From Candidatus Woesearchaeota archaeon (GTDB lineage Archaea > Nanobdellota > Nanobdellia > SCGC-AAA011-G17 > GW2011-AR18), in contig JACPCE010000003.1 in assembly GCA_016179945.1 (NCBI GenBank), positions 1 to 62,406 of the forward strand: a stretch of 62,406 nt of DNA. The letters run 5' to 3'. The position numbers and the translations under genes were made by a program. The notes beneath the pieces were generated by a model. That model saw only the letters and a list, made by a program, of their open reading frames with translations, ran no database searches and had not been told where the DNA came from. Each line of letters begins with the position of its first letter. The stretch's first letter is position 1. This document shows, in pieces, positions 20,981 through 59,869 of the stretch.

Positions 20981-21116
20981 GGCGGCCATAGTGGCTTGGT
21001 TCCATCCGATCCCATATGTTTGACAAAAAAACAGGGTTGTTCGAACTCGGAAATTAAGCAAGCCCGCGTTCCGTATTGTACTGCGCTCAGCGCGGGAAGT
21101 GCGGTTAGCTGCCACC
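20981..21116 (+). rRNA. rrf: 5S ribosomal RNA with a ~23-24-nt insertion in the helix III / loop C region
   Basis: GGCGGCCATAG...TTCGAACTCGGAAATTAAGCAAGCC...GGGAAGTGCGGTTAGCTGCCACC matches archaeal 5S landmarks. Helix I pairs GGCGGC/GCUGCC, helix II GGCUUG/CAAGCC and helix III UCCGA/UCGGA. There is extra sequence between CCCAU and UUCGAAC. Confidence 0.8.
21016..21038 (+). other. Candidate mini-intron or expansion hairpin inside 5S rRNA
   Basis: CCC(21011-13)/GGG(21034-36) helix, AUA bulge, UGUUU-GACAAAA-AAACA hairpin, UUG bulge. The arrangement is BHB-like. Confidence 0.35.
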
Positions 21117-21128
21117 TTTATTTTTCAA

Positions 21129-21644
21129 CTAAAATTCTTTCAGCTTCTCTTTGAAGAATAAATAACCAATCCATAAAACACCCAATCCCATATCAAATAT
21201 AGCAGAATTTAATTTATAATTAATTTGTTCATAAGTTAAAGTAGTCCAGATATAATTGTTAACATATCCAAAAAACCAAAATCTAGAAGTTAAAGGCCAC
21301 AATAAAGGAATTCCAGGATAGCCTAAAACCATATCTGCAATTATATGGGATAAAATACCAAATGAAAAAAACAACCCATACCTTTCACCATTAAGTCTCC
21401 TATCTATAACAATACAAACAAAATAGATTAATAAAAAACCAGCAAAAGCCATGAATAAACTGTGTGTAAAGGTTCTATGTATGTTTGTTCCAAATACCCA
21501 TCCAGCTATAAAATCTATATCAGGAAATAAAGCTCCAAACAAAAGCAAAAACCATTCTGGCCTTTTTATTTCAAATATTCTCGTCTTTACTAAGATCTTA
21601 CCTATCAGCCAGGCAAATACTAAATGTCCAAATGCAAATGGCAT
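21129..21644 (-). CDS. Membrane-bound metal-dependent hydrolase (YdjM/DUF457-like)
   Basis: MPFAFGHLVFAW..., FPDIDF and HRTFTHSL motifs. Polytopic. Confidence 0.6.
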   Translation of the reverse strand: MPFAFGHLVFAWLIGKILVKTRIFEIKRPEWFLLLFGALFPDIDFIAGWVFGTNIHRTFTHSLFMAFAGFLLIYFVCIVIDRRLNGERYGLFFSFGILSHIIADMVLGYPGIPLLWPLTSRFWFFGYVNNYIWTTLTYEQINYKLNSAIFDMGLGVLWIGYLFFKEKLKEF

Positions 21645-21695
21645 AGTTTTACAGAAAAAAGCAACAGTTATAAAAAACATGCTATTTGTATATTC

Positions 21696-21986
21696 ATGAA
21701 AAGATTAAACAAAAACAAACTTAAACAAATAGCCTTGGAAAGAATTAATATATTATTTCAAGAGGCTAAATCAAATCCATCAAAAGCAAATAGGTATGTA
21801 GAAATCGCTAGAAAAATAGGTATGAAAGTAAACATACCCATACCAAAGGAATACAAAAGAAGATACTGCAAACACTGCAATAATTATTTTCAATCAGGAA
21901 ATTACAGGGTAAGAACCAGAAACAAAATGGTTGTTTATTATTGTTTAAACTGTAAGAAATATATGAAATTTAAAATTAATTTTTAA
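21696..21986 (+). CDS. rnp4: RNase P protein component 4 (Rpp21/Rpr2 family)
   Basis: ALERINILFQEA...ANRYVEIARKI...YCKHCNNYF...RVRTR...YYCLNCKKY has the Rpr2 helical and zinc-ribbon layout. The start is taken at MKRLNKNK. Confidence 0.75.
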   Translation: MKRLNKNKLKQIALERINILFQEAKSNPSKANRYVEIARKIGMKVNIPIPKEYKRRYCKHCNNYFQSGNYRVRTRNKMVVYYCLNCKKYMKFKINF

Positions 21987-22176
21987 CACCAAGCCTAGCA
22001 GGCATTGCAATCCAAAAAATTATATACAAAATAATTCCAAATCCAATGCTGAATAAAGTGAATACTATCCAGATTAGCCTGACAATAGTGGAATCTATTT
22101 CAAAGTATTCTGCAATTCCTCCGCAAACACCTCCAAATTTCTTGTCTTTTTCAGATAAGTATAATTTTTTAACCAT
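21976..22176 (-). CDS. PspC-domain membrane protein
   Basis: LYLSEKDKKFGGVCGGIAEYFEIDSTIVRLIW followed by a TM helix. Confidence 0.7.
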   Translation of the reverse strand: MVKKLYLSEKDKKFGGVCGGIAEYFEIDSTIVRLIWIVFTLFSIGFGIILYIIFWIAMPARLGVKN

Positions 22177-22211
22177 AGGAATTTATAAAAAGTTTTTATA
22201 TTTAAATTATT

Positions 22212-22484
22212 CTAAAAGCCAAATGAGTCAGTGAATTCCTTGATTTTTCTGTAATCATCAAGAAATTTAATACCATCTTTTGTTATAATGTAAAATTTAT
22301 TTCCCTTTTCAAATTGCTCCCTGACCATATCCTTAGAAAATAATTCAGTTAAATAAATCTGCATCTTTGTATGTGATAGGTTTGATTTGTAAAGTAAATG
22401 TGTTGGTTTGATTCTACCGCCTTTCTCATGAATAGAAATAAGCATATCATATATTATCCTTAATTTGTCTCTTCTTTCATTCAT
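22212..22484 (-). CDS. Small winged-helix DNA-binding protein
   Basis: KLRIIYDMLISIHEKGGRIKPTHLLYKSNLSHTKMQIYLTEL has a wHTH layout. Confidence 0.5.
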   Translation of the reverse strand: MNERRDKLRIIYDMLISIHEKGGRIKPTHLLYKSNLSHTKMQIYLTELFSKDMVREQFEKGNKFYIITKDGIKFLDDYRKIKEFTDSFGF

Positions 22485-23176
22485 TTCCTTAGCACCAAGA
22501 TCAAATTACCAAGTAAAATAATATACGCCAATAGACTTATAAATTGACCGGCTATATATAACCCAAATATTTGATAAGCACTCATTCCAATAAATATTAA
22601 ATTAGATATGGCCAATAATAAAAAGGAAAAGAAAACCAAGTAAGGGCTCTTGCTCTTTTTTTCTTTATAATTATCATAAGCATAAGGAACCATATAGACA
22701 ACAAGCAGTACAAAAGAAAAGAAATAAAAAAAGGTCAAAGACCAAGCTTGTTTAACTAAGATTGCACACAATAAAGCAATTAAAAGTAATGAAAGTATAA
22801 CTCTTTTATTTCTTACATTTGAAGCAAGGCATGATAAAATAATATAACCACCTAATATAAAAAAAGTATGCGATATTAAACCTAAAGTATAAAAATAACT
22901 CGGCTTAATAATAAATAAAAAATTCGAAATTTTTTCAAATAAACCATAATCAATTATTGCAAAATTGCTCACGGCACCAGCAAGAAATCCAGCAGTCATG
23001 GAAAGAAAAGCTGCTGCTAGATATTTGTAATTTGTATTAGAAGACATTTTATATACTTTATAACTATAAAAAGAAATTCCGAAAGTTATAAGCATAGATA
23101 TAATATAGAAAATTAATTCAATTGAAATAAACCAGAAAGGCCTGAATAATATATCATTTATTGCAGCCATAGTCAA
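22481..23176 (-). CDS. Polytopic membrane protein, unknown function
   Basis: About seven hydrophobic helices. Its stop overlaps the downstream wHTH gene start. Confidence 0.45.
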   Translation of the reverse strand: MTMAAINDILFRPFWFISIELIFYIISMLITFGISFYSYKVYKMSSNTNYKYLAAAFLSMTAGFLAGAVSNFAIIDYGLFEKISNFLFIIKPSYFYTLGLISHTFFILGGYIILSCLASNVRNKRVILSLLLIALLCAILVKQAWSLTFFYFFSFVLLVVYMVPYAYDNYKEKKSKSPYLVFFSFLLLAISNLIFIGMSAYQIFGLYIAGQFISLLAYIILLGNLILVLRK

Positions 23177-23361: not shown

Positions 23362-23490
23362 GTGATATATATTCTTCAAACAAAAGAAAAGACAATATAC
23401 AGCAATGAAACTGTTGATGATTTTTTAGACGAAGACGAAATATCAATTGAAGAAGCAGGATTTATGGAGGGATATAATATTACATATTAA
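23362..23490 (+). CDS. Small acidic ORF with a C-terminal EEAGFMEGYN motif (start uncertain)
   Basis: Reads ...TIYSNETVDDFLDEDEISIEEAGFMEGYNITY. The only possible start is a GTG abutting AAAGGAGG. It shares a motif with ORF 55551-55682. Confidence 0.25.
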   Translation: MIYILQTKEKTIYSNETVDDFLDEDEISIEEAGFMEGYNITY

Positions 23491-23930
23491 AACCACCTAA
23501 ATAAAGAATTATTATTTATCTTTCTTGGTTTAAATTCTTTTTTTACAATTTCTCTCCATTCATTCTTGACCCACTTTCTCTCAAGTTTAATTAATTCAGT
23601 AAAACCTCTTTTTTTCAGATCTTTGTTTACAATACCGCCTTTATGCGGGTGTTTAAACAGTTTTGGCAAAGGGCTGTTAAATCCGTGGCTGTAATGTACT
23701 AATTCATGTGCAATTGTAAGATTTATTATAAAGTCAGGAATATTATCATCTTTAAAATACCCATTTATAACAATTTCACTGTCGCCATTATTTAGTTTTT
23801 TAATATGTCCAAACTTATTTTTCCATTTCCCTTTGAACATAATATTAATATTGTTCTTCTTTTCTATGTCTGAAAATGCATTTATCCATATCTCCTCAAG
23901 CTTTACTCTTAAATATTCATTATTTCTCAT
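23487..23930 (-). CDS. HExxH zinc metallopeptidase-like protein (SprT/DUF45-like)
   Basis: LTIAHELVHYSHGF motif. 147 aa. Last gene downstream of the surface-protein operon. Confidence 0.5.
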   Translation of the reverse strand: MRNNEYLRVKLEEIWINAFSDIEKKNNINIMFKGKWKNKFGHIKKLNNGDSEIVINGYFKDDNIPDFIINLTIAHELVHYSHGFNSPLPKLFKHPHKGGIVNKDLKKRGFTELIKLERKWVKNEWREIVKKEFKPRKINNNSLFRWF

Positions 23931-23978
23931 AAAAAAATACTACTAAAAGTATTTTATTAATTTAACTCATTTAAAGAA

Positions 23979-25505
23979 TTATAGTTTGGATCTATTAGGC
24001 AGTTCAATTTTGTATACAAATTCCCTAAGCTTTCTCATTGAACTATCATAGTATTCCTTGCTTATATTTCCAGAAGCATAATTGTCTCTTAACATAATAG
24101 CTCTTCTTGCAATCTGCGACCTAATGTTTGATTGAAGATTGTTTTCAGAGGAAATGCTGTTTTGTGTATTTTTTACAATACCAAGCTGCCTTTCTTTATA
24201 AGTTTTAATCCCTAAATCAAAAAATTGCTCCAATTTTTTTAACTTTTTCATTTGTGAGCTTTCTACAAAAAATATTACCAATAATAATATTATAAATAAA
24301 ACATAAATCATAAAATTTTTATTAAGATAACTAAAAAAATCCTGTTTCGATTTTACATAAAATACATCAGAAGCACTGCTTACAACATTCCCGCTTGAAA
24401 CCTTTATATAAAGCAAGTAAGTTCCATCTTTAATGTAGTCAGGTAATTTGATTGTTTTAATATAATTAATTTGCATTTCAAATATTCTTGCTTCACTTTC
24501 TTCTATAATTTGATTATTTTCTAAATCCCTAATATAATAAGTGATATTTACATCTGTCTGCCCAGTTATCGTCTTTATATTTGTTATCGTTGTTTCAAAT
24601 ATTAATTTACTGCCAGAGCTTAGGGTGTTGTTAAAAATTTTTAAAACAACATCAAATAAAGGTTCTGGTGATGAGACCTCAAGAATAAAAGGAATTTGTT
24701 TAACTTCATCCAGATAGCTGATTTTTATTTTTTCAGTATATAATTCAGGTTTTAGATTTTTGTCTGTACGTATTGCAATTTTATATTCTTTAATTTCACC
24801 AGGTTCAATTTCAAATTCTTCTTTAAATAATCCAGAAGTGGAGATGAATTTGGCTACATTAGTTAGATCTATTTTAATTTTAATCGTTTCTTTGCCATTG
24901 TTTGTAAATATAATATAATGATCTACTGTACCGCCTGCAAAAGTTTTTAATTTAATTACTTTATCACTTATAGATATTGGATCAGGAACTTCTTTAATAG
25001 TGGGTGTTACTGGTAATGCTGCAACAGCACCCCTGCCACCCCCACCACTTCCACCAGAAATTGCTGATTGACTTGGAGCAGGAGCTTGAGTAGATACAGT
25101 AAATACAACTTGATTTGAATCATTAACTAAGCCAACACTGTCATTTGCATAAAGTCTTAATGTATGTATTCCATCGCTTGCAGTAAAAGTTATATTATCT
25201 GTAATTGTAATATTTGCTCCACTATCTAAATTATACCATATTGTACCTATAGAAGAGAAAGAATCATTTATAGAAAAATTAAGAAGTATTGTCGTTGTTG
25301 TATAAGTAATATTTTCTGGCAATGATAAAACAAGTGAAGGCGGCATAGTATCCACATTAATTGATACAGATAAAGAAGAGTAAGTAGCTTTAGAATGATA
25401 ATTTGGATCTTCTTTCAACCCAGTTAATAAAAAAACTAAAAATAAAAAAATAACTACAGAAAATATTAGTATTTTAGAGTTGTAATTAAAGTTACCATTG
25501 CCCAT
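23979..25505 (-). CDS. Membrane-anchored surface protein with Ig/CARDB-like beta-sandwich repeats
   Basis: N-terminal TM helix, many NxS/T sequons, a SGGSGGGGRG linker, a C-proximal TM helix and a charged cytoplasmic tail. Confidence 0.6.
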   Translation of the reverse strand: MGNGNFNYNSKILIFSVVIFLFLVFLLTGLKEDPNYHSKATYSSLSVSINVDTMPPSLVLSLPENITYTTTTILLNFSINDSFSSIGTIWYNLDSGANITITDNITFTASDGIHTLRLYANDSVGLVNDSNQVVFTVSTQAPAPSQSAISGGSGGGGRGAVAALPVTPTIKEVPDPISISDKVIKLKTFAGGTVDHYIIFTNNGKETIKIKIDLTNVAKFISTSGLFKEEFEIEPGEIKEYKIAIRTDKNLKPELYTEKIKISYLDEVKQIPFILEVSSPEPLFDVVLKIFNNTLSSGSKLIFETTITNIKTITGQTDVNITYYIRDLENNQIIEESEARIFEMQINYIKTIKLPDYIKDGTYLLYIKVSSGNVVSSASDVFYVKSKQDFFSYLNKNFMIYVLFIILLLVIFFVESSQMKKLKKLEQFFDLGIKTYKERQLGIVKNTQNSISSENNLQSNIRSQIARRAIMLRDNYASGNISKEYYDSSMRKLREFVYKIELPNRSKL

Positions 25506-26095
25506 TATTGTTCATCTGAAGAGCCTCTTTTTTTATACCACAGCATTGCAATTATTATTAAAACAATTATTATTAAAACAAGTAAGTACGTTTTGTTAAA
25601 TTCACGTTCTTCTTTTTTTGCAGGAGGTGTTAAGTCTAATGGTTTTGGTTGTGGTGAACCTCCAAGAATAACCAAAGGTATAGTCTGTTTTATTCCAGAT
25701 CCAAGTTGGACAACACTAGAGCTACTAGGAGGTATTGTTTCAACTAAAATTCCCAATGTATAATTTACATCAGTTGCATTTAATGGTACAGAAACTTTAA
25801 GGTTAATTTTAACATCAGACTTTCCAAAAGGAACAAAATATTCTGTAATATTATCAGTTATTTGTATAAATTGATGTCCAGAAACTACTTTTGCTCTTGC
25901 TTTAATATCTTCATTGCCAATCATATTTTGTAGTAATAAATTAAACTCCACAGTTTGGCCTGGAGCCATTACTAAAGGATTAGTATCCCAATAAGGAGTA
26001 GTAACTCCAAAACCATAAACTATCGGTAGCAAACAAATTACTAAAATTATCAATATTACTAACTTTACAAATTTTATGCTATTTGTAGTGTCCAT
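25505..26095 (-). CDS. Small surface protein with N-terminal signal/TM and C-terminal TM anchor
   Basis: Beta-rich ectodomain, a PQPKPLDLTPP linker, and a C-terminal TM helix followed by KKRGSSDEQ. Confidence 0.55.
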   Translation of the reverse strand: MDTTNSIKFVKLVILIILVICLLPIVYGFGVTTPYWDTNPLVMAPGQTVEFNLLLQNMIGNEDIKARAKVVSGHQFIQITDNITEYFVPFGKSDVKINLKVSVPLNATDVNYTLGILVETIPPSSSSVVQLGSGIKQTIPLVILGGSPQPKPLDLTPPAKKEEREFNKTYLLVLIIIVLIIIAMLWYKKRGSSDEQ

Positions 26096-27015
26096 GATCC
26101 ACCTCTAAATGTTGAATAAGATTGTTGTGTTAAACCTGTCATTACTCGAGTTAAACAGAAGTATAATTGCTCTTGTCCAGTAGCACCGTTATTTATACTG
26201 AAGTTTCCTCTTGCCATACTAGAACCAGAAACGTTCATATAAGTATTATTTCTTAAATCTATACCTGAAGTTGCATTAAAATCGCATTCAAGAAGAGGAG
26301 AACCCCCTGCTACCTGATCAACAGTAAAGTTTGAAACATTGATAAATGTTGTTGCATTTGATTCACCCATTAAATTTATTGAATTAATACTAATATTGCT
26401 TGCAAGAACATTTGCATTTCCTGTATTATTCATTAATATAGGATCGTTGCTTGCTGTTATATTTGCACTGCCTATACTAACACTAGGCCATGTTAAAGCA
26501 CTAGGAGCCATGACAAATGCTATAGTAGAACTTAATGTAAAACTGATAGTTCCATTTGAACCATTTGCTCCAGAGCTATCTGTAACATTAGCACTTGCGC
26601 TCCATGTTCCAGGACCATCAAACCAGTAAAGTGGAACAGTGCACCTGAATACTCTTGCTGTAGAATTAATGTCAAACAGATTCTGACATGTTGCGTTATA
26701 TCTGTCAGTTTCTCCTGTTCTGTTAAGATGGCCTTGAACTGCAGTCAAAGTTCCTGCACCATCAGGATCTGCAGCAACATAATCAAAACTTACATTTGTA
26801 ATTCCAGCCTCTGTAATACTCTGTGCAGCAATGGTTGTAACATTTATAACAATAGGAGCTGTATTAGCAATTGTAATATTTACAGTGGTTGTCTGCGTAG
26901 TAGCCCTTCCAGTGATAAAATCAAAAAAATTAAAATCAAAGAAGCCAGCTGACACAATTGGAATAATTAACAAAACTGTTAATATGAAAATAAAAAACAC
27001 CAACCTTTTTTCCAT
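26074..27015 (-). CDS. Secreted sequon-rich surface protein, paralogous to the C-terminal module of the 1146-aa protein
   Basis: Signal peptide ...PIVSA. About 18 NxS/T sequons. Long collinear identity with residues ~865-1146 of the upstream giant protein, including the C-terminus QEQLYFCL...SYSTFRGGSWT. Confidence 0.65.
   Translation of the reverse strand: MEKRLVFFIFILTVLLIIPIVSAGFFDFNFFDFITGRATTQTTTVNITIANTAPIVINVTTIAAQSITEAGITNVSFDYVAADPDGAGTLTAVQGHLNRTGETDRYNATCQNLFDINSTARVFRCTVPLYWFDGPGTWSASANVTDSSGANGSNGTISFTLSSTIAFVMAPSALTWPSVSIGSANITASNDPILMNNTGNANVLASNISINSINLMGESNATTFINVSNFTVDQVAGGSPLLECDFNATSGIDLRNNTYMNVSGSSMARGNFSINNGATGQEQLYFCLTRVMTGLTQQSYSTFRGGSWTLQIA
26592..26853. repeat. Copy A of a ~260-bp segment shared by two adjacent surface-protein genes
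   Basis: High nucleotide identity by eye (roughly 85 percent) with 27586-27845, for example CCAGTAAAGTGGAACAGT.CACCTG.ATACTCTTGCTGT and CTGTTCTGTTAAGATGGCCTTGA. Confidence 0.7.
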
Positions 27016-27079
27016 AAAGTTTATACCTTAAATTAATTTATAAATGTTACTGAAGTTGAAAAATATCAATGAAATATAT

Positions 27080-30000
27080 TTAAATTATACCAATAGTCCA
27101 TGAACCAGCTCTAAATGTTGAATAAGATTGAGGTAATAATACACCAACTTCTTCTAAACAAAAGTATAATTGTTCTTGTGCAGTTCCATCATTTATAGTG
27201 TAGTTTCCTTTATTTAATGCTGCACCAGTTATTGTTACTAAAGTATTGTTGGCTAACCTATTACTAATTGGAGCATCAGTAGCACATCCAGATAAATCAG
27301 GATTTGAAGTAAAGTTGGAAGAGTTTATCCAGTAAGAACCAGTAACTTCTCCAATTAAATCTATTGCAGTAACAGTCACACCGCCTCCAACACCTATATT
27401 AACATTTCCAGTATTGTTTAATATTATTGGATGATTTATAGATAATTGGTTAACTTGGCCAGAAATAATAGTTGTAGGCCATCTTAAAGCAGTAGGTGCC
27501 ATTACAAATGCTTTTGTTGATTCAACTGTAAAGCTTACACTATTATTTGAAGCATTTAAATTATTGTTACTAATATTTGCGCTTGCAGTCCATGTTCCTG
27601 CACCGTCAAACCAGTAAAGTGGAACAGTACACCTGTATACTCTTGCTGTTGAGTTTAAGTCAAACATATTCTGGCATGTTGCATTATACCTGTAAGTTTC
27701 TTCTGTTCTGTTAAGATGGCCTTGAGCTGTAGCTGTAGCACTAAATCCAGCAGGATCTGCAGCAACATAATCAAAGCTTACATTTGTTATTCCAGCTTCT
27801 GTAATACTTTGTGCAGCAATGCTTGTAACGTTTAGTACAATAGGACTGCCACTACTAATTGTAAATGTTTGTAAATCTGTCTGGTTCATGTTATTTTTTG
27901 TATCATTTCCATAGAATCTCCAATATACAGTTGTACCAGGCACACCAGTTATTAAACTTGTATTTGTAGAAACATTTCCTGCGCCAAATGTTATTGCTGA
28001 TGTATTGTAAAATCCGCTACTGCTAAAATTAATTTCAAACATATAAGTGTTTAATCCTATATAATCTCTCCATGTAGCATTAAATACAACAAGTGTATTA
28101 TTATAGACTGTTGTTGTATTTCTCTGAACATCATACCATTCTGGGAACGGTGATGGGAAACTAGTTACTGTATGTGAAATTGTTCCATTAGTTCCACTAG
28201 TAGAGTTTCCTGCATCTGTACTTGCATCACATGCACCATCTGTTCCAGTTCCAGCAGTACCAAGTTCACTTGTATTAAAGAAACCAGCAGCAGTTACCAA
28301 AGCTCCATACCTATAAACTATTCTACCTCCGCCAGCACCACCCCCTCCACAAGAATCACTAGTTCCACTTCCACTAGCACTTCCTCCATTCCCACCCTTA
28401 GCAGTAATTCTACCAGTGCTGCTTAATGTTAAATTTCTAGATATTAAAATAACATGTCCTCCACTTCCGCCTCCACCACCAGACTGGTCTGTTGAACCTC
28501 CAGCACCACCAGCTGATCCATTTACATCAATAAGTCCATGTATATAGATAAATCCATTGCTTGCATTAACTCTAAATCCAGCACCACCATCACCACCAAT
28601 TGCAGCAGTTGCATCAGTTGCATCACTAGCAGAGCCGCCTCCGCCAGCACCAAACAACAATGTTAAATTAGTACCATCACTTGATGTAAGTCCTCCTTTT
28701 CCTTTTGTTCCAGCAGAACTATAACCTCCTTCTCCTCCAACACCACCGAAACCAGCACCACCACCTCCAGTACTGTCTCCTCCACTTGCTCTAGTTCCTC
28801 CACCCCCACCCCCACCATTAGGATTATTTGATGCAGTACCAGCACTTCCTGTATTGTTTTCTCCTTGTGTAGCAGTACATGTGTTTCCAGAACATCCTGT
28901 GCCATTCCTGCCACCTCTGCCAGATCCAGAAACTATTGAAGTAGAGTCTATAGTAAAGTTACCCTCATCACCTAAACTTATATTTACATATCCTGTTTGC
29001 CCACTTGCATTGTAAGGGCAAATTAGTAATGTGCCAGTATTAATTACTTCGATTTTATCATAAGCAGTAACTTCTCCACATAGTGTTTGTGAACCCCCAC
29101 TAATTGTAAGTGTTGGATCTACAACTATTTCATCATTAATTGATTTATTATTGATGCCATAATCCTTAGATAAGTAAACATAGACTATATTGGAATGTGT
29201 TTTCTTAACTTCTATGTTATATCCTGCTTCTCTCTCAGATTTAAAGTCAACTTCAAACTTGCCAGACTTCATATATCCGTCATAATAATCAATAACATCA
29301 ATAGGAGAGCTTGAACTTATTCTATACCTCACTTTGAAATCATTAGCTGGTAATAGGAATTTGTTTTCAATTTTCCATTTATATCCTTTGTTATATTTCG
29401 CTTTGCTAAATTTCCTTCCTTCTATGTCTTTCTTTATTTCCTTTGAATCAAATTCTATATCTATTGTTGTATCTTCAAATGTTGAAGTATAAGTAAATTC
29501 ATCTTTTGAATCAAGAGGAATAGCCTCATCAAATAATTTTCCATTAATAATTGGTTTGTGTATAATCAAAGTCTTCTTATTCTTATTCTTCAGAGTAATT
29601 TCTTCTGCAGAATAACTTAGAACATTAATGTCTTCTATATTATTTTTTGATATTGTAATATTTCTTTCTTCTATTATACTATCTATTGTACTAATTTCAC
29701 TTTGTATTGTATAATTTGGTGAAGTAGGTATGGTTATATTGTCAAATGTCTCAGTAATATTACTTTGTGTTAAGTTTACATCTTCAGTTAAATTAGTTTC
29801 ATTAGTTGTTTTTAAAGCCTTATCTTTCTCAGTTTTTCCAACTGTAATTTCAGTTAAATTTTCTGCTAGTATTGTATTATTGTCTATTATTCTTGAAACT
29901 AAACTGTAATTTCCTGATTTAGTTGGAACAGGTATTTCAAATACAGTGCTGTTTATTGTCAAATTGCTTATATTGTATCCGTAAACAGTTTCATTATTAA

Positions 30001-30520
30001 TAGATTTATTACTAATTTCAGACAAGAAATTATTTACAGGTTTTGTATAATTTTTATTATCAAATTCCAATTGTACAATGCTTGAGTTAGGTATAAAATT
30101 ATTTATTTCAAAGTATATGCTTTCATTTACAGTTCCGCTTTCATAGAATGCAAATCCAGTAATTTCAGGTCTAACAAGCAATAAAGTTAAAATAAACAAC
30201 CCTAAGACACCTAAAATTGCTGTTGTTTGAAGTGCTTTTGTCTTGATATTTTCTTTCTTAATTTCACTGCTGCACACTTCTAATTTATTTCTATAATTTT
30301 CTATGCATTTGTTGTAATAATTAACCCATTGTTCGCAACTTCTATTCTTCAATACAGTGTTTAGTTTAGATTTGTATTGGTCATAAGTAATTCTGCCTTC
30401 TCTGTATTGTTTTTCTAGTTCCTGACTAAACTCAATTATCTTTCTCTTGTATTTCTGGCAAAGCTGAATATTCCTAATTAACTCAATCTTTCTCCTTTCT
30501 AGATTAGTTAATGATTTCAT
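27080..30520 (-). CDS. Giant (1146 aa) membrane-anchored, sequon-rich surface protein with a glycine-rich central region
   Basis: N-terminal ~95-aa cytoplasmic coiled region, one TM helix, a long beta-rich ectodomain, a GGxGG-rich block (residues ~530-770), and a C-terminal module paralogous to the 313-aa protein. Confidence 0.7.
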   Translation of the reverse strand: MKSLTNLERRKIELIRNIQLCQKYKRKIIEFSQELEKQYREGRITYDQYKSKLNTVLKNRSCEQWVNYYNKCIENYRNKLEVCSSEIKKENIKTKALQTTAILGVLGLFILTLLLVRPEITGFAFYESGTVNESIYFEINNFIPNSSIVQLEFDNKNYTKPVNNFLSEISNKSINNETVYGYNISNLTINSTVFEIPVPTKSGNYSLVSRIIDNNTILAENLTEITVGKTEKDKALKTTNETNLTEDVNLTQSNITETFDNITIPTSPNYTIQSEISTIDSIIEERNITISKNNIEDINVLSYSAEEITLKNKNKKTLIIHKPIINGKLFDEAIPLDSKDEFTYTSTFEDTTIDIEFDSKEIKKDIEGRKFSKAKYNKGYKWKIENKFLLPANDFKVRYRISSSSPIDVIDYYDGYMKSGKFEVDFKSEREAGYNIEVKKTHSNIVYVYLSKDYGINNKSINDEIVVDPTLTISGGSQTLCGEVTAYDKIEVINTGTLLICPYNASGQTGYVNISLGDEGNFTIDSTSIVSGSGRGGRNGTGCSGNTCTATQGENNTGSAGTASNNPNGGGGGGGTRASGGDSTGGGGAGFGGVGGEGGYSSAGTKGKGGLTSSDGTNLTLLFGAGGGGSASDATDATAAIGGDGGAGFRVNASNGFIYIHGLIDVNGSAGGAGGSTDQSGGGGGSGGHVILISRNLTLSSTGRITAKGGNGGSASGSGTSDSCGGGGAGGGRIVYRYGALVTAAGFFNTSELGTAGTGTDGACDASTDAGNSTSGTNGTISHTVTSFPSPFPEWYDVQRNTTTVYNNTLVVFNATWRDYIGLNTYMFEINFSSSGFYNTSAITFGAGNVSTNTSLITGVPGTTVYWRFYGNDTKNNMNQTDLQTFTISSGSPIVLNVTSIAAQSITEAGITNVSFDYVAADPAGFSATATAQGHLNRTEETYRYNATCQNMFDLNSTARVYRCTVPLYWFDGAGTWTASANISNNNLNASNNSVSFTVESTKAFVMAPTALRWPTTIISGQVNQLSINHPIILNNTGNVNIGVGGGVTVTAIDLIGEVTGSYWINSSNFTSNPDLSGCATDAPISNRLANNTLVTITGAALNKGNYTINDGTAQEQLYFCLEEVGVLLPQSYSTFRAGSWTIGII
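27586..27845. repeat. Copy B of the ~260-bp shared segment
   Basis: See copy A (26592-26853). Confidence 0.7.
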
Positions 30521-31026
30521 TTCTTAGCCTTCCCTCTAGCTTTGTGATATGAAGTCCAGATTGTACGGTCGTTTCTTCTAAGCAAAACTGCAATCTGGTG
30601 GAAACTCAAATTACAAACATCTTTCAAATACAAGCAAATATTTTCTAAAACTCCAAGGTTTCTGTCTCTAAAAATTTCAAAAGGAATATAATATTCACAA
30701 TCAGAAATTACAAAAAATTCTTTTTTCTTTTTTCTTGCTTTGGAATGAGTAACCCAGATAGTTCTTTGGTCTCTGTTAAGCAAAGAAGCAATTTCAGAAA
30801 AAGCAAGTTCTTTATTTTCTTTTAAAAATTTAACAATAGACTCCAAACAGCTTAATTCATCATTGGAAAAAATAGCTACAGGAATTCCTTCTTTTGGTTT
30901 TTTTATTAAATTTGTAATATCTTCTTCTGTGTAGCCTTGTTTTTTCAAAACATCAACAATTTCAAGAAATTTGTTTTTTAATTTATTAGAATCTACATAA
31001 TTCTTACTTACTCTGTTAGATTTCAA
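30517..31026 (-). CDS. Tandem helix-turn-helix protein (two sigma-70 region 4 / LuxR-like repeats), first gene of the surface-protein operon
   Basis: Internal duplication: LAFSEIASLLNRDQRTIWVTHSKARKK and LSFHQIAVLLRRNDRTIWTSYHKARGK. Its stop overlaps the giant gene start (ATGA). Confidence 0.5.
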   Translation of the reverse strand: MKSNRVSKNYVDSNKLKNKFLEIVDVLKKQGYTEEDITNLIKKPKEGIPVAIFSNDELSCLESIVKFLKENKELAFSEIASLLNRDQRTIWVTHSKARKKKKEFFVISDCEYYIPFEIFRDRNLGVLENICLYLKDVCNLSFHQIAVLLRRNDRTIWTSYHKARGKAKK

Positions 31027-31115
31027 TACTTATTAAATAAGTATAATTACTTATAAATATTACTTTTTTACTTATTAAATAAGTAATTAATGTACTATAA
31101 AATATATTTAGAAAA

Positions 31116-31499
31116 CTATAGACTACGAACATAACTTATAATTATAAACCTAACTTCCCTACCAGCAGGTTCTTCCCTGTATAATTTTTGATTTAGTGTT
31201 AATCTTAAATCTCTTTCAGGATCTGAACCAGGTAGCGGGTTATGCAAAGTTACAAAACCATACATCTGTAAATCACAAAGAGCATCTGAAAGCATTGTTT
31301 TTTTATAGTTATCAACAAACCTTTCATTTCTCGAGAAAGTATCATCTAATTCACCAAAAGTAAGAGATCTGTCAGTTGAACCTTGCAATCTGGCTGTTAC
31401 AGCTCTAATTACCTGACTTTCACAAAGTAAACGTCTTTGATCATAAGAAAGAACACCATTTTCTAAACTAGGTTTCCTTAATGGAACAACATCCCCCAT
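31116..31499 (-). CDS. Hypothetical protein with atypical (Arg/Leu/Gly/Asp-rich) composition
   Basis: 127-aa ORF. No motif recognised. Confidence 0.4.
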   Translation of the reverse strand: MGDVVPLRKPSLENGVLSYDQRRLLCESQVIRAVTARLQGSTDRSLTFGELDDTFSRNERFVDNYKKTMLSDALCDLQMYGFVTLHNPLPGSDPERDLRLTLNQKLYREEPAGREVRFIIISYVRSL

Positions 31500-31526
31500 A
31501 TAAAAATTTAATGAAGAAAAGTTTAA

Positions 31527-31724: not shown

Positions 31725-31809
31725 AATAATTGTGAATAAAATATATTTTTAAAGCTTTCTAAATCTGACTCTGGTAAAACCCCCAATAATAATATATAAA
31801 AGAAAGTTC

Positions 31810-52677: not shown

Positions 52678-53505
52678 ATGTTTAGAAAGTACGGTTTGAT
52701 TGGGATTTTACTAATTATATTTGTTGAAATTAATTTCTTCTTAAAAATCAAGCCATTTGCAAACTGGTATTTTCCAATTGTTTGGTTTGGATATATATTA
52801 ACAATAGATGCTTTGGTTTATAAATTAAAGGGCAATTCTTTAATCAGCAATAGATTTTATCAGTTTTTAGGAATGGTTATAATATCAATGTTGTTCTGGT
52901 GGATTTTTGAATTTATTAATATCCCTCTGCAAAACTGGTCTTATTTAGGCGTTAGTAATTTAGGAATTTGGAAAAATGTATTCGGTACTATTTCTTTTGC
53001 AACAGTTCTTCCAGCATTATTTGAAACAGTTGAACTTATACGTTCAATTCATCTTTTTGATAATACAAAACTAAAGAAAAAACACAACATTACAAGAGGA
53101 TTTGTTCATACAATGATTACTTTAGGGGTATTATTTTTTATAGCTCCAATATTCTTGCCAAAATTTGCTTTTCCTTTGGTTTGGTTAAGCTTTTTCCTTA
53201 TTTTAGATCCAATAAATTACTTACATAAACAGCCAAGTATCATAGGACATTTAAAAGATAAGAAATTAACAATACCAATATCACTATTGGTTGCAGGTAT
53301 TGTTTTAGGATTTTTATGGGAATTCTGGAATTACTGGGCAATACCAAAATGGACTTACAACATTCCATTTGTTGGATTTTTTAAAATATTTGAAATGCCG
53401 GTTTTAGGTTACTTAGGATATTTTCCATTTTCATTTGAATTATATACAATGTATTGGTTTATTAGAAGTTTATTTGTGCATAAAGAACATTTGTTAATAC
53501 GTTAA
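52678..53505 (+). CDS. Polytopic membrane protein, unknown function
   Basis: About eight hydrophobic helices, Trp/Phe-rich. Confidence 0.5.
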   Translation: MFRKYGLIGILLIIFVEINFFLKIKPFANWYFPIVWFGYILTIDALVYKLKGNSLISNRFYQFLGMVIISMLFWWIFEFINIPLQNWSYLGVSNLGIWKNVFGTISFATVLPALFETVELIRSIHLFDNTKLKKKHNITRGFVHTMITLGVLFFIAPIFLPKFAFPLVWLSFFLILDPINYLHKQPSIIGHLKDKKLTIPISLLVAGIVLGFLWEFWNYWAIPKWTYNIPFVGFFKIFEMPVLGYLGYFPFSFELYTMYWFIRSLFVHKEHLLIR

Positions 53506-53514
53506 ATTTCTTTT

Positions 53515-53640
53515 TATATTCGCTGTTAAATCCTGCCGACTACGAAGTGGGAGGTACGAGGAGCGTAGCGACGAAGAGTAAAATTTTCATTTCTCCGTAG
53601 GGCAAGGTTGAGAAAGACGAGAAAACCACTAACCGGTAAT
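53515..53640. ncRNA. GC-rich, hairpin-forming intergenic segment; candidate structured RNA or leader
   Basis: Stands out against the AT-rich flanks. TCGCT...AGCGA pairing, and the hairpin UUUCUC-CGUAGGGCAAGGUU-GAGAAA. No known RNA family recognised. Confidence 0.2.
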
Positions 53641-53681
53641 AAATACATAATTTTTATAAATAACCGCCATTTTTTAGGGTT

Positions 53682-54236
53682 ATGATTAATTTAAAAGAAG
53701 AAGAATTAAAACGGGCAAGGAGATTTGATTATTTAAAACTAATGCTATTTGGTACAGATTTGCCTAATTATGCTTGTAGAAATATTGGTGAATTTTTAGA
53801 TAATAAATCTTCGATGGGGGTAATGAAGCAAGTTGTAGTTCCACGAGTTGTTTATTTCCCTCATCCAGAAACTAGCGATGAGAGATTATGTTTGCCAATC
53901 AAATTGAGGGACGAGAGTGGCGAAATTAATGTATATGTTAGACCACAAGCCTTTCATACAGAAAGTGGAAGATTTCTAGTTAAAGCATTAGATGATATTC
54001 GTCAAGGTGATCTGCTTGTTTATGTTATATTAAGAAATGGAGTTTTGGATCCAACAATATTTGGTGATGGTGTTGTTGATGATAGGATTTATTTAACCGG
54101 TTTTTGGAGTCCAAGAATAAGAGAAAATCAAAAACCAGGACTTTCTAATTTAGTAGCAAAACTCAGTGATTTAATACCAGATTTAAGTCCATTACCTGCT
54201 CCAGTCCCAGTTGGGATTTATTTTTCTCGCCGTTAA
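53682..54236 (+). CDS. Hypothetical protein with atypical composition
   Basis: 184-aa ORF, Arg/Gly/Pro/Val/Asp-rich, ending PLPAPVPVGIYFSRR. No motif recognised. Confidence 0.45.
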   Translation: MINLKEEELKRARRFDYLKLMLFGTDLPNYACRNIGEFLDNKSSMGVMKQVVVPRVVYFPHPETSDERLCLPIKLRDESGEINVYVRPQAFHTESGRFLVKALDDIRQGDLLVYVILRNGVLDPTIFGDGVVDDRIYLTGFWSPRIRENQKPGLSNLVAKLSDLIPDLSPLPAPVPVGIYFSRR

Positions 54237-56819: not shown

Positions 56820-57566
56820 ATGAGAAAAAAAAGTGAAAAATTCATAAACATAATATTTGTTTTTCTAATAGTTATATCAGTAGTTCTTTTAGGTTATACA
56901 TTAAATAATTTATTTTTTCCTAATAACTTAAGTGAAAAAACAGACACAATGCAAATTCAGACTAAAAGTAAAATGAGTTTAAGTAGTTTTGATAAGCAAT
57001 TGGCAAAGGCATTTATGGATAAAAATAATGATGGATGATGTGATTCTTGCGGAATGTCTGTAGAACAATGTATAGATTCAGGTCAGCTTCAATGCACAAT
57101 GGATCCAAATGGTAAAATTGGATTATTAGGTTCGCAGCACATTCATGCAGATTTTAAAGCTTATATAAACAATGAAAAATTGGATTTTTCAGATAAAGAT
57201 CATATGGCAAGAATGAAAAATGGTTTTTCTTTAAGTAGTTTTATACACGTAGATTAGGGTGCTCCTGAACCTGAGAAAACAGGAGATGTATTGCATATGC
57301 ATGCAAAAGGTGTTCCTATTCGGATATTTTTTGAAAGTCTAGGAATGAAGTTTAATAAAAATTGTTTTATTTTAGACGATGGTGAGAAATATTGCAGCAA
57401 TGAATTTAAAACTCTAAAATTTTATGTTAATGGCAAGTTAAATAATGAATATGAAGATTATGTATTTAATGATTTAGATAAAATATTAATTAGTTATGGA
57501 AACGAAGACCAAAGTAAAATTCAATCACAAATATCAACAATAACTGATTTTTCAAAAGTTCATTAA
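56820..57566 (+). pseudogene. Single reading frame for a membrane-anchored His-motif protein interrupted by in-frame TGA (57036-57038) and TAG (57255-57257)
   Basis: Track ORFs 56820-57038, 57054-57257 and 57291-57566 are all in the same frame. The joined product is TM anchor...DG*CDSCG...HIHADFKAYINNEKLDF...SFIHVD*GAPEPEKTGDVLHMHAKGVPIRIFFESLG... Confidence 0.5.
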
Positions 57567-57568
57567 TA

Positions 57569-57979
57569 ATGAAAAAATTAAATTTGGAGAAAACAACAAG
57601 TATTTTTAGTAGTTTTTCAGGAGAAACTAGTTTTCTTGGTGGATATCAAGTGTGTCACAGTATTTGTACTGTTATAATTTCTTTATTGTCCTTAATAGGA
57701 ATAACAATAATAGGAATGCCAATGTTATTTTTACAAAAAATAGCAATTCCATTTTGGATTATTGCATTGATTTTATTTAGTTTGACTTTGTTTTTATATT
57801 TTAAGAAAAGATGCATCTCTAAAAATATCTTAATTTTCAACTTAGGAATAATAATAGCAAGCACACCATTTAACGAATTAGGAAAACCTATACTTATTTT
57901 TTGGATAGTTGGAGGATTTATTATTTTACTATCTCTTTTTCTATACATAAAGCCAAAAATAATACAACAACTTCTTTGA
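57569..57979 (+). CDS. Membrane protein, unknown function
   Basis: Four hydrophobic helices and a CHSIC motif near the N-terminus. It starts 3 nt after the preceding frame ends. Confidence 0.5.
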   Translation: MKKLNLEKTTSIFSSFSGETSFLGGYQVCHSICTVIISLLSLIGITIIGMPMLFLQKIAIPFWIIALILFSLTLFLYFKKRCISKNILIFNLGIIIASTPFNELGKPILIFWIVGGFIILLSLFLYIKPKIIQQLL

Positions 57980-58016
57980 CCCAAACCTTTTTAAAAATCT
58001 CTGAAATCTTTTTATT

Positions 58017-59726
58017 ATGCTAAGACAAGTAATTGTAACAATAATGGGAAATGTAGATGCAGGCAAATCCCAGACCATAGATTGCATTAAAAAAACATCT
58101 ATAGTCCAATCAGAACCAGGAAAAATAACACAATCAATTAAGGCTTATTCAATTTCTATAGAAATAATTAAGTTAATTTGTAAAGATTTATTAGATTTAT
58201 CAAAAATAAAAGTTCCAGGTTTATTATTTATAGATACGCCTGGCCATAAAGCATTCTCAAATCTAAGAAAAAGAGGTGGTTCTTTAGCTGATATTGCAAT
58301 ATTGGTAGTTGATATAAATGAAGGATTAAAGCCCCAAACAATAGAAGCTATAGAAATACTAAAAGAGAATAAAACCCCTTTTGTAATAGCCTTAAATAAA
58401 ATTGATTTATTAAATGGCTGGCAGTCAAGAACAGACATTCCAATGGTAAAAACAATTCAATTTCAAACACAATCAACACAAAAATTACTTGATGAAAAAA
58501 TATACAGACTTCTGGCAGAATTCTATGAGAAAACTCTTAATACAGAAAGGTTTGATAGGATTGAAGATTTTACAAAACAAATAGTTATGGTTCCTATGTC
58601 TGCTAAAACAGGAGAAGGCATTCCAGAATTATTAATGATAATAACAGGTTTAGCTCAAAGATTTCTTGAGTCTGAATTAAGTTACGATCCAGAAGCGCCA
58701 GCAGAAGGTACAGTTTTAGAAATAACAGAAGAAAAAGGCCTTGGTCTTTGTATGGATACAATAATATACAAAGGCAAAATAAAAGCCAATGATATGATGG
58801 TTGTTGGTACACTGCATGAACCAATAGCAACCAAAATAAAAGCATTATTTTTAGTTGAGAAGAATCAGTTAAAATCTATAAAAGAAGTAGAAGCAGCAAT
58901 TGGAGTAAAAATTTCTGCAACAGGAATAGAAGCAGTTATTCCTGGAATGCCATTGAAAATAGCAAATAAAGATTTGGAAAAAACAAAAATAGAAATTAAA
59001 AAACAAATAGAGGAAACAACACTAGAATTAGATAATGAAGGTATTATTGTAAAAGCAGATTCTTTAGGTAGCTTAGAAGCATTAATAAATTTGTTAAGAG
59101 AAAAAGGAACAAAAATTAAAAGAGCGTCTGTAGGAGAAATTTCAAAAAAAGATATTACAGAAGCATTATCATCAAATAATATACTACAAAGAGTAATTTT
59201 AGGATTTAATACAAAGCAGTTGGATAACAATGAAGTTAAAATAATCACAGATAACATAATTTATTCATTAATAGATAAATTTGAAGCATGGTATAATGAA
59301 GAAAAACAAAAAATTGAAGAAAAATTAATGGGAAATTTACCTAAGCCCTGCAAGATAAAAATACTTGAAGGATATGTTTTTAGACAATCTAGTCCTGCTG
59401 TATGCGGCATAGAAGTATTAGCAGGAACATTAAAACATGGAATATCATTAATGAAAGATGATAGAGGAATAACAGAAGTTAAGGAAATGCAGCACGAAGG
59501 AAAAAAGTTGGCAGAAGCCAAGCCAGGCGAACAATTGGCTATTTCAATGCCTGGAATAACAATTGGAAGGCAGATAAAAGAAGGAGATATTTTATATTCA
59601 GATATGACTGAAGAACAGTTTAGAATTTATAAGAAAATGAAAAAATTAATTACAGTTACAGAAGTAGAGATATTAAAAGAAATAGCAGAAATAAAAAGAA
59701 AAAATAATCCTGGTTGGGGAATTTAG
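58017..59726 (+). CDS. infB: Translation initiation factor aIF5B (IF-2 homolog)
   Basis: GTPase motifs GNVDAGKS, DTPGHKAF and NKID, followed by the aIF5B domain II-IV layout. 569 aa. Confidence 0.92.
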   Translation: MLRQVIVTIMGNVDAGKSQTIDCIKKTSIVQSEPGKITQSIKAYSISIEIIKLICKDLLDLSKIKVPGLLFIDTPGHKAFSNLRKRGGSLADIAILVVDINEGLKPQTIEAIEILKENKTPFVIALNKIDLLNGWQSRTDIPMVKTIQFQTQSTQKLLDEKIYRLLAEFYEKTLNTERFDRIEDFTKQIVMVPMSAKTGEGIPELLMIITGLAQRFLESELSYDPEAPAEGTVLEITEEKGLGLCMDTIIYKGKIKANDMMVVGTLHEPIATKIKALFLVEKNQLKSIKEVEAAIGVKISATGIEAVIPGMPLKIANKDLEKTKIEIKKQIEETTLELDNEGIIVKADSLGSLEALINLLREKGTKIKRASVGEISKKDITEALSSNNILQRVILGFNTKQLDNNEVKIITDNIIYSLIDKFEAWYNEEKQKIEEKLMGNLPKPCKIKILEGYVFRQSSPAVCGIEVLAGTLKHGISLMKDDRGITEVKEMQHEGKKLAEAKPGEQLAISMPGITIGRQIKEGDILYSDMTEEQFRIYKKMKKLITVTEVEILKEIAEIKRKNNPGWGI

Positions 59727-59730
59727 AAAA

Positions 59731-59740
59731 CTTTATAACT
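59731..59740 (+). promoter_or_regulatory. TATA-box-like element upstream of the tRNA
   Basis: CTTTATAACT centred about 29 nt upstream of the tRNA 5' end. Confidence 0.45.
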
Positions 59741-59794
59741 AATTCTTAGTGTTTGATTTTTACGGGCCCGTAGCTCAGCTTGGTAGAGCATCTG

Positions 59795-59806
59795 AGTTAT
59801 GATGAA
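59795..59806 (+). other. Putative 12-nt intron at tRNA position 30/31
   Basis: Alternative fold: outer helix AGAG(21-24)/CUCU(32-35), central helix CAUC(25-28)/GAUG, bulges UG|A and AA|A. Confidence 0.4.
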
Positions 59807-59813
59807 ACTCTTA

Positions 59814-59830
59814 ACAAGTAAAATAGAGAG
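59814..59830 (+). other. Putative 17-nt intron at the canonical 37/38 position
   Basis: Central helix CUCU(32-35)/AGAG, 5' bulge UA|A, 3' bulge AG|A, followed directly by the UCAGA stem strand. Confidence 0.5.
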
Positions 59831-59869
59831 ATCAGATGGTCGCGCGTTCAAATCGCGTCGGGCCCGCTA

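Follow-up and report, generated by a model that had tools for sequence, protein, structure and literature searches.

A stretch of 62,406 nucleotides (nt) from a Candidatus Woesearchaeota genome (contig JACPCE010000003.1, assembly GCA_016179945.1; referred to below as the window) carries six short inserts in four genes: two in the initiator tRNA-Met (tRNA-iMet) gene, two in a tRNA-Lys(CUU) gene, one in the 5S rRNA gene and one in rnhB, the gene for RNase HII. The inserts are 12, 17, 22, 24, 29 and 31 nt long and are very probably archaeal bulge-helix-bulge (BHB) introns, spliced by EndA and RtcB in this Woesearchaeota/Nanoarchaeota genome. For an organism of this kind the tRNA introns are nothing unusual. 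Judged by sequence and predicted pairing, those of 5S and rnhB add new members to the BHB-intron class, in host genes new to it, and we infer that EndA and RtcB carry out the reaction in vivo, including the splicing of the 5S transcript. An earlier reading of the window (the original prediction) had described six elements of 12-31 nt with this same distribution over four genes, and all of them are present.

Detection of the interrupted genes

The window has a GC content of 23-35% and its proteins have matches in metagenome-assembled genomes (MAGs) of Candidatus Woesearchaeota and Nanoarchaeota. Comparison loci from relatives are labelled L001-L017, where L003 is GCA_964395935.1 and L017 is JGI 3300027835, Ga0209515_10011970. 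Rfam recognised three RNA genes in the window, namely tRNA-Glu(UUC), a tRNA at 59764-59866 and the 5S rRNA at 20978-21117, and ARAGORN detected tRNA-Glu alone. The tRNA-iMet gene at 41530-41657 was overlooked by both programs; it was seen by eye in a GC-rich island and by a scan for acceptor and T arms. The same scan found no further hidden tRNA in the window, in agreement with the claim that tRNA-Glu (61265-61339; ARAGORN, and 56.3 bits with Rfam) is its only uninterrupted tRNA, and this gene serves as an internal control. The four interrupted genes, their introns and exons, and tRNA-Glu all lie on the forward strand.

One cut rule for six inserts

The BHB was defined as two 3-nt bulges on opposite strands with a 4-bp helix separating them, as given in PMC4033280. 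We refer to this central helix as H and to the flanking outer and inner helices as h and h'. A single rule, by which the RNA is cut after the second base of each bulge, accommodates all six inserts with bulges of exactly 3 nt, and it is equally valid for ten orthologous or neighbouring introns in relatives. The cut position is the one implied by canonical introns at position 37/38. H is complete (4/4) in rnhB and in both tRNA-Lys introns and has 3/4 pairs in 5S and in both tRNA-iMet introns; both flanking helices are present in 5S (h/h' of 3/5 bp) and in the tRNA-iMet 37/38 (5/4 bp) and D-loop (2/10 bp) introns. The original prediction had every element adopting one arrangement around an exon-derived helix. 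The shared arrangement was borne out, whereas the helix proved to be only half exon (its 5' strand), the other half (the 3' strand) being intron.

Boundaries were fixed independently of the motif, via homology to mature RNAs and proteins. Excision by the rule gives a 116-nt 5S rRNA, an in-frame RNase HII of 220 amino acids and two tRNAs, of 75 and 74 nt, for which ARAGORN returns Met(CAT) and Lys(CTT), respectively. Insert-free orthologues are joined precisely at the predicted junction for 5S (L001, L009), rnhB (L009, L010, L011), tRNA-Lys (L012) and the tRNA-iMet 37/38 site (L003). With the boundary fixed by homology and the length held constant, a BHB as good or better is found at 8e-6 to 3e-4 of positions, and the rule fits at six of six. 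In the two 37/38 introns the anticodon stem itself supplies the outer helix, so that the independent evidence there is H (and h') only.

The 5S rRNA insert

The 5S rRNA gene (20978-21117; Rfam RF00001, 52.7 bits) is 140 nt long with its insert and 116 nt without, and its alignment to the Rfam model places 27 nt in loop C at a 3-nt model stretch. The predicted intron comprises 24 nt of loop C (21016-21039), with H formed by UCCC/GGGU (3/4), h' of 5 bp and h of 3 bp. Writing H strands in square brackets, bulges in round brackets and cuts as a bar, its layout is AUCCGA [UCCC] (AU|A) UGUUUGACAAAAAAACA [GGGU] (UG|U) UCGAAC, and the minimum free energy (MFE) fold includes H, bulge B1 and h'. The predicted exon-exon junction is GATCCCAT|TTCGAACTCGG (also written GATCCCAT|TTCGAACTC); the spliced sequence, CCCAU|UUCGAAC, would have the consensus loop C length and is identical to the junction of the intron-less 5S of L001. 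In the close relatives L001 and L009 the 5S rRNA is 116 nt long and has no insert, the alignment gap falling exactly at the predicted cut sites.

We searched for further cases by looking for loop-C flanks 15-45 nt apart, in one scan of 185,579 species-representative genomes and one of JGI metagenomes. Together, the two scans yielded only three more distinct insert-bearing genes, all from Woesearchaeota/Nanoarchaeota MAGs, with inserts of 21, 30 and 22 nt. The hairpins of these three are unrelated (UGUU/AACA, UCCUAAUC/GGUUAGGA and UUAUG/CAUAA). In all four species the exon UCCC pairs with an intron GGGN, the bulges are AUA and NN|U, and the mature junction is identical.

The rnhB insert

In rnhB, exon 1 (45789-45823) encodes MVTICGIDDAG and the first two bases of an Arg codon. 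From the ATG at 45789 the gene reads MVTICGIDDAGR, followed by a 29-nt insert that brings in a stop and a frameshift, and then resumes with GPVIGPMV...; the insert lies inside the catalytic DDAGRG motif. The predicted intron (45824-45852) has the layout [UGGU] (AG|A) AAGUUUAACUUUUGUUGAACUU [ACCA] (AG|A) GG, with H formed by UGGU/ACCA (4/4), h' of 9 bp and h of 1 bp. Cutting after the second base of each bulge takes out exactly 29 nt and restores A-G-R-G-P, with a predicted exon-exon junction of GCTGGTAG|AGGTCCTGTC (also written GCTGGTAG|AGGTCCTG). Joined to exon 2 (45853-46480), exon 1 would give a 220-amino-acid RNase HII that matches 220-amino-acid Woesearchaeota RNase HII over 100% of its length with identity of up to 84%.

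The public gene call at this locus (P0001) is a truncation of 202 amino acids. Among the best 120 homologues, 13 (the window's own call included) are annotated at 200-205 amino acids and cover 92-93% of the query; seven of these 13 are assigned as intron carriers solely from the truncated call. In all five short-called homologues that were fetched (L001, L002, L003, L016 and L017) the same codon is interrupted by 30 nt that include an in-frame stop. The intron is thus found in six lineages with 65-100% protein identity, and the reading frame is broken by a stop or a frameshift every time. The carriers have in common the UGGU/ACCA helix and the 9-bp hairpin, in which h' shows the changes G-C to A-U and U-A to C-G; taken over all six, the share of pair cells that do pair is 92.9%, and it drops to 23-56% once the partner strand is shifted. 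A bulge reads AA|A in L002 (giving Lys) and one reads UU|A in L003, and the cut rule still gives A-G-(R/K)-G-P. The C-G-I-D-D-A-G core of exon 1 has undergone synonymous changes only across the six carriers (TGC/TGT, GGT/GGG/GGC, ATC/ATT, GAT/GAC), from which it follows that exon 1 is translated. Pre-mRNA introns of the cbf5 type interrupt a coding sequence whose two exons remain under purifying selection, and rnhB shows this pattern, with a stop or frameshift in the insert, an exon 1 core that varies only synonymously and an intact exon 2. Intron-less rnhB genes of L009, L010 and L011 (80-84% identity) show a clean gap at the insert site. In a rough neighbour-joining tree the carriers are scattered among non-carriers, and this suggests that the intron is old and has been lost precisely and repeatedly, as described for cbf5 (PMC2738675).

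The tRNA inserts

The tRNA gene at 59764-59866 (Rfam tRNA, 53.1 bits) is 103 nt long and would mature to 74 nt; relative to the Rfam model it has 32 nt at a 3-nt model stretch. Its first predicted intron, of 12 nt at position 30/31 (59795-59806), has the layout GUAGAG [CAUC] (UG|A) GUUAU [GAUG] (AA|A) CUCUUA, with H formed by CAUC/GAUG (4/4), h by AGAG/CUCU (4 bp) and a 5-nt loop in place of h'. The second, of 17 nt at 37/38 (59814-59830), has H formed by CUCU/AGAG (4/4), bulges (UA|A) and (AG|A) and again no h'; its h is the anticodon stem as it stands after intron 1 removal, and this helix is visible in the local MFE fold. The predicted junctions read ATCTG|ACTCTTA|ATCAGA. In L012 the orthologue beside aIF5B shares its arms and G73 with the window gene, and its anticodon arm, UCUGA-CUCUUAA-UCAGA, is unbroken, with both window introns absent. 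The window gene is for this reason read as a tRNA-Lys(CUU) with two introns. What had been termed a Lys-like tRNA can accordingly be named firmly, the spliced form also being called Lys(CTT).

The tRNA-iMet(CAU) gene (41530-41657) is 128 nt long and would mature to a 75-nt tRNA. At 15/16 it has a predicted D-loop intron of 31 nt (41545-41575), with the layout [GGAC] (AG|A) AAAAUUGACAUUAGUGUUAAUUUU [GCCC] (GA|C), H formed by GGAC/GCCC (3/4, with an A.C mismatch), h' of 10 bp and h of 2 bp. At the canonical 37/38 site there is an intron of 22 nt (41600-41621), with the layout [CUCA] (UA|A) UAGG..CUUA [UGUG] (AU|A), H of 3/4, h' of 4 bp and the 5-bp anticodon stem as h; it is missing from the L003 orthologue. 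The junctions predicted for the two introns are GGACAG|CTAGGAG and CTCATA|ACCCGA. The mature tRNA differs from the L003 and L017 orthologues solely by compensatory changes in the acceptor and T stems. The intron strand of the D-loop H reads GCCC in the window, GUCC in L003 (a perfect match) and GUUU in L017, with the exon GGAC invariant. These GUCC and GUUU strands fix the 31-nt register and the mature D-loop AGCUAGGAGU, and a 29-nt register (41546-41574), which gives a 12-nt D-loop, was rejected because of them.

The 3' end of the D-loop intron (41570-41576, GCCCGAC) is perfectly complementary to 41589-41595 (GUCGGGC, G26-C32), and the resulting helix is in competition with the anticodon stem as well as with the BHB in pre-tRNA-iMet. 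It might order the two splicing events, or it might be a remnant of the origin of the intron.

Relatives have further tRNA introns. The tRNA-iMet gene of L003 (7535-7701) has three, each with H of 4/4, at 15/16 (29 nt), 42/43 (32 nt) and 53/54 (31 nt). That of L017 (259-458, 200 nt) has four, which interrupt position 15/16 (30 nt), the anticodon stem (29 nt), the variable region (32 nt) and the T-loop (34 nt) and obey the cut rule with H of 4, 4, 4 and 3; the maximum number of introns per tRNA was given as three in a 2014 review (PMC4033280). In place of the two window introns, the tRNA-Lys(CUU) orthologue of L012 (8378-8483), which ARAGORN misreads as tRNA-Phe(AAA), has a different one, of 31 nt in the D-arm. 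The tRNA-Glu(CUC) gene of L012 (10329-10440) has an intron of 37 nt, and the tRNA-Ser(CGA) gene of L010 (12482-12595) has one of 29 nt at 30/31 that is not in L009. To judge from these sequences, the turnover of tRNA introns among relatives is rapid. An open reading frame (ORF) of L003 with a weak match to LAGLIDADG_3 overlaps the 3' part of its tRNA-iMet gene on the opposite strand and may be a spurious call.

Similarity between the rnhB and tRNA-iMet D-loop introns

When a covariance model of the rnhB intron was used for searching, its best non-self match was the tRNA-iMet D-loop intron, at 13.5 bits in the window, 19 in L003 and 18 in L017. The two kinds of intron have the common sequence AAAAUU.AAC ... 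GUUAAUUUU, and the likeness extends over 45818-45853 and 41539-41575 of the window, 9946-9982 of L001, 7545-7575 of L003 and 272-297 of L017. Aligned with the window D-loop intron, the L001 rnhB intron is alike at about 24 of 31 positions (z=6.4 against shuffles, a value inflated by hairpin symmetry). The convergence of three independent covariance-model searches on the tRNA-iMet D-loop intron argues for a real similarity. Descent from one ancestral intron or a constraint acting on both could explain it, and the sequences are compatible with the view that the two introns may share an origin through transposition between a tRNA and a protein gene. Other matches of the model, L004 3482-3519 and L015 5921-5949, were discarded as intergenic or AT-rich, and pairwise likeness among the other introns (5S, Lys, Ser, Glu) was never above that of shuffles.

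Alternative explanations

Several observations weigh against splicing by the proposed rule. A mismatch is present in three of the six H helices, both tRNA-Lys introns have h but no inner helix, and the rnhB intron is without an outer helix; the last two cases make for relaxed motifs, which are said to require an EndA of broad specificity (PMC5829648, PMC4033280). Covariation in rnhB is modest, with two compensatory pairs, and 46-51 of 500 shuffles reach the observed value. MFE folding favours competing structures twice: a 7-bp helix, GCCCGAC/GUCGGGC, at the tRNA-iMet D-loop, and at rnhB another register, GGUA/UACC, which leads to an out-of-frame product. We rejected this second register, in which symmetric cuts take out 27 nt and the frame is lost; two symmetric 3-nt bulges belong to the register that keeps the frame. 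EndA and RtcB are not encoded in the 62-kb window according to Pfam.

We give next to no credence to the view that AT-rich sequence produces the BHB-like folds by chance or that the inserts are assembly artefacts. Loose BHB patterns are indeed very frequent: a motif-only scan of the window returned 20,106 sites with H=4 and h' of at least 3, of which 685 would also join ORFs. Such a scan, which the original prediction had proposed genome-wide as a check (in hBHBh' and HBh' form), is swamped and was set aside as uninformative without homology-defined boundaries, but at the boundaries that homology does fix a frequency of 1e-5 to 1e-3 per site is expected and 6/6 sites fit. The sequence is no assembly artefact, as the inserts were seen again in independent MAGs and metagenomes and, over 57517-60111, the window matches a separate assembly of this organism at 100% identity. 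Run SRR12113431 also contains the identical contig. Group I and group II introns find no place here either, as no Rfam intron family was matched in the window and elements of 12-31 nt are too small for a ribozyme core of hundreds of nt. A retained expansion segment, an extra loop C hairpin like those of Halococcus morrhuae and clostridial 5S rRNA, is an explanation of the 5S insert that we consider unlikely but worth weighing. Retained segments exist in some prokaryotes (Halococcus morrhuae, Thermoanaerobacterales; Stepanov & Fox 2021, PMC7812874), where they too are hairpin sequence added at helix III-loop C, and loop C is reported to be sterically permissive and among the least obstructed sites (PMC7812874), a point that counts against an intron. 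That survey mentions neither a BHB motif nor DPANN archaea, and excision was untested in it. However, the segments it describes lack complementarity to the 5S core (PMC7812874), whereas here the GGGN with which the insert ends is paired to the core UCCC in BHB geometry in four of four species despite their unrelated hairpins. The BHB cut sites moreover regenerate the junction of intron-less relatives to the base, and the tRNAs and rnhB of the same genome carry the same motif.

Fragmented rRNAs occur in other organisms. Yeast TSEN cuts mRNAs for decay without ligation (PMC10485636), and by analogy EndA might cleave the motifs and leave the exons unjoined, producing a fragmented 5S rRNA or down-regulating rnhB mRNA. 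There is only a small chance of this, because the synonymous-only exon 1 core of six lineages fits solely an exon 1 that is translated in fusion with exon 2, and because cutting by the rule brings back the reading frame in each lineage, L002 and L003 included. Archaeal RtcB also normally ligates EndA products. For rnhB it might further be supposed that the gene is a pseudogene, called as it is as a truncated protein, or that ribosomes pass over the insert by bypassing or frameshifting in the manner of T4 gene 60; the insert has a stop codon with a hairpin after it, and in the window an AGA before the insert and an AGA at its end are possible take-off and landing codons. Both ideas are very improbable. 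The putative take-off and landing codons differ from each other in L002 (AAA and AGA) and L003 (AGA and UUA), and the 200-amino-acid downstream ORF and the 12-codon exon 1, with its synonymous-only core, are intact in six lineages. An RNase HII started at the internal Met would be without the catalytic Asp. Lastly, ARAGORN with introns allowed (-i) calls the gene at 59764-59866 tRNA-Ile(tat) i(39,29), that is, a tRNA-Ile(UAU) with a single 29-nt intron at 37/38, and the Rfam alignment likewise puts all extra bases in one loop insertion. This call can hardly be right, as its H would have only 2/4 pairs (GUUA vs AGAG) and both helices of the two-intron solution are perfect, while in the orthologue of L012, whose other arms are almost the same, the CUCUUAA loop is unbroken. 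The discriminator base of the window gene, G73, is moreover the one found in archaeal tRNA-Lys.

Discussion

We propose that the six inserts are removed as follows. Four exon bases 5' of the 5' splice site would pair with the last-but-two intron bases, forming a 4-bp helix with a 3-nt bulge on each strand; EndA would cut after the second base of each bulge to leave 2',3'-cyclic phosphate and 5'-OH ends; and RtcB would ligate the exons and probably circularise the intron. In tRNA-Lys the introns would compete for the CUCU tract, which is needed in h by intron 1 and in H by intron 2, and their removal is probably sequential for that reason. In pre-tRNA-iMet the BHB would have to be chosen by the enzyme or by folding order, since the MFE favours the GCCCGAC/GUCGGGC helix. 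The same machinery would be needed for tRNA-iMet, for tRNA-Lys(CUU), for a 5S rRNA of normal length and for the frame and DDAGRG motif of RNase HII. The contention that splicing acts beyond the anticodon-loop site is supported by the exact junctions of intron-less 5S, rnhB and tRNA-Lys orthologues, by the retention of introns in relatives with compensatory or wobble changes and by the synonymous-only exon 1 core of rnhB.

Non-canonical archaeal tRNA introns are the subject of Fujishima & Kanai 2014 (PMC4033280) and Kaneta 2018 (PMC5829648), and the cbf5 intron of Yokobori 2009 (PMC2738675). Earlier, non-canonical archaeal tRNA introns were reportedly described by Marck & Grosjean 2003 and Sugahara 2007-2009, the cbf5 pre-mRNA intron by Watanabe 2002 and Yoshinari 2006, and archaeal rRNA BHB introns by Kjems & Garrett and Tang 2002. 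The tRNA introns of the window resemble the multiple and non-canonical introns of Thermoproteales, ARMAN and DPANN archaea (PMC4033280, PMC5829648) in having the same bulges and 4-bp helix, more than one intron in a gene, insertion away from 37/38 (at 15/16 and 30/31 in the window), relaxed hBH and HBh' motifs and rapid gain and loss. Their lengths are inside the published range of 11-175 nt, albeit in a Woesearchaeota host and, at 12-31 nt, at its very short end. An alpha4 EndA with an L3 loop has been linked to more tRNA gene disruption in DPANN archaea and was reported in Woesearchaeota and Pacearchaeota (PMC5829648). Sequence-related introns in different genes are known from intron transposition in Thermoproteales (PMC4033280); the pair found here spans a tRNA and a protein gene and not two tRNAs.

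In protein-coding transcripts, short relaxed BHB introns are known from cbf5 of Crenarchaeota (PMC2738675) and the 5' untranslated region (UTR) of HVO_1309 of Haloferax (PMC7714728), and reviews up to 2023 give these two as the only mRNA BHB introns. The rnhB intron is like them in its patchy distribution, with gain and repeated loss, and in the truncated or split gene calls that result. It differs from them in its host gene, in lying three codons after the catalytic Asp and in its DPANN lineage, DPANN EndA being reported as alpha4 with the L3 loop and not as the crenarchaeal (alpha-beta)2 form (PMC5829648). The 5S intron is comparable to the BHB introns and processing stems of 16S and 23S rRNA (PMC7714728), in which a BHB in the rRNA precursor is cut by EndA and the ends are ligated. 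It is distinguished from crenarchaeal rRNA introns by its 5S host, its length of 21-30 nt and the absence of an ORF, typical ones being hundreds of nt long. The phrase '5S rRNA intron' is absent from the open-access literature that we searched, although an earlier report elsewhere is possible. A eukaryotic case that resembles the present one is the splicing of HAC1 and XBP1 by IRE1 and RtcB, where a protein-only endonuclease acts at mRNA stem-loops, ligation of the RtcB type restores or changes the reading frame and the XBP1 intron is 26 nt. Its endonuclease family and motif are different and it is stress-regulated.

If confirmed, these introns would add 5S rRNA and a second coding sequence to what the archaeal splicing endonuclease is known to act on, and they would do so in the DPANN archaea, where only tRNA gene disruption had been noted before. 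Mis-annotation of interrupted genes, which the original prediction expected, is plain to see: owing to its intron, the window RNase HII is called 18 amino acids short and without its catalytic Asp, 12 homologues are called at 200-205 amino acids, tRNA-Lys is called tRNA-Ile(UAU), and tRNA-iMet is invisible to standard tools. Interrupted 5S genes can likewise drop below detection thresholds, and the misreading of tRNA-Lys(CUU) as tRNA-Ile(UAU) would wrongly imply an unusual AUA-decoding strategy. Such errors enter completeness estimates for DPANN genomes and counts of 'missing tRNA' and 'assembly frameshift', an example of the counts affected being the 325 split-gene events of a Nanobdellota preprint. 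The relatedness of the rnhB and tRNA-iMet D-loop introns, together with the patchy rnhB intron, makes intron transposition and loss testable in an uncultivated lineage, and the pair would, if the relationship is true, show in a present-day genome how protein-spliced introns pass from tRNA to mRNA.

A broader hypothesis, on which we find ourselves evenly divided, is that EndA/RtcB splicing is a general step of gene expression in Woesearchaeota. It would be needed for 5S rRNA and for one mRNA or more, and would comprise the first reported intron in a 5S rRNA gene, the first coding-sequence BHB intron outside Crenarchaeota and one mini-intron family that moved between the tRNA-iMet D-loop and rnhB, and many DPANN 'frameshifts', 'truncated genes' and 'missing' tRNAs or 5S rRNAs would be unrecognised introns.

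Other features of the window and related loci

A tblastn screen for split genes in the window and 11 loci found only dnaK of L004, where the split is a run of N in the scaffold (5646-5656), and a screen for N- and C-terminal truncation was swamped by antisense ORFs. Other candidates were rejected as introns. S28e of L012 (around 4800) and MgtE of L014 (around 4200), whose gene calls are short or split, each differ from near-identical strains by a single nonsense substitution, and the NYN-domain gene on the reverse strand of the window (35995-36453) has a 12-nt deletion and a lost start codon relative to its relatives. This gene is without the first 13 positions of its profile and, compared with 168-amino-acid orthologues in L001, L003, L009 and L010, misses four codons, GVFV, the first beta-strand beside the catalytic Asp; gene decay is one possible reading and a shortened variant another. 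Directly upstream of tRNA-iMet, the forward-strand ORF at 40905-41468 resembles PALP, a family of PLP-dependent enzymes, in the C-terminal half alone (139-295 of the 295 profile positions) and has the look of a gene remnant.

The two RNA-end-processing genes that the original prediction placed in the window are there by Pfam, RtcA at 34546-35556 and a 2H/LigT-like protein at 1595-2197. Their link to the introns, presented from the start as circumstantial, is no closer than that, and a specific link was rejected since RtcA is syntenic in relatives whose 5S and rnhB genes are intron-less.

Two intergenic islands, 53505-53682 and 6940-7020, have about 50% GC in DNA of 28% GC. Neither matches an Rfam family or has a counterpart in the relatives that were fetched, and both could be unrecognised small RNAs. 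On the reverse strand, 23487-34496 is a run of large ORFs of up to 1,146 amino acids (27080-30520), with GC-rich repeats that would encode Gly-rich stretches. Those submitted to Pfam, which did not include 27080-30520, had no match; the products are probably surface or pilus-like proteins. The surroundings of the 5S gene also vary among relatives. An SLT transglycosylase gene that lies between the rhodanese gene and 5S in L001 and L009 is missing from the window, and the HTH_45-DUF7521-Rpr2-YdjM block at 20570-23176 is inverted relative to 5S in comparison with L009 (113-3978).

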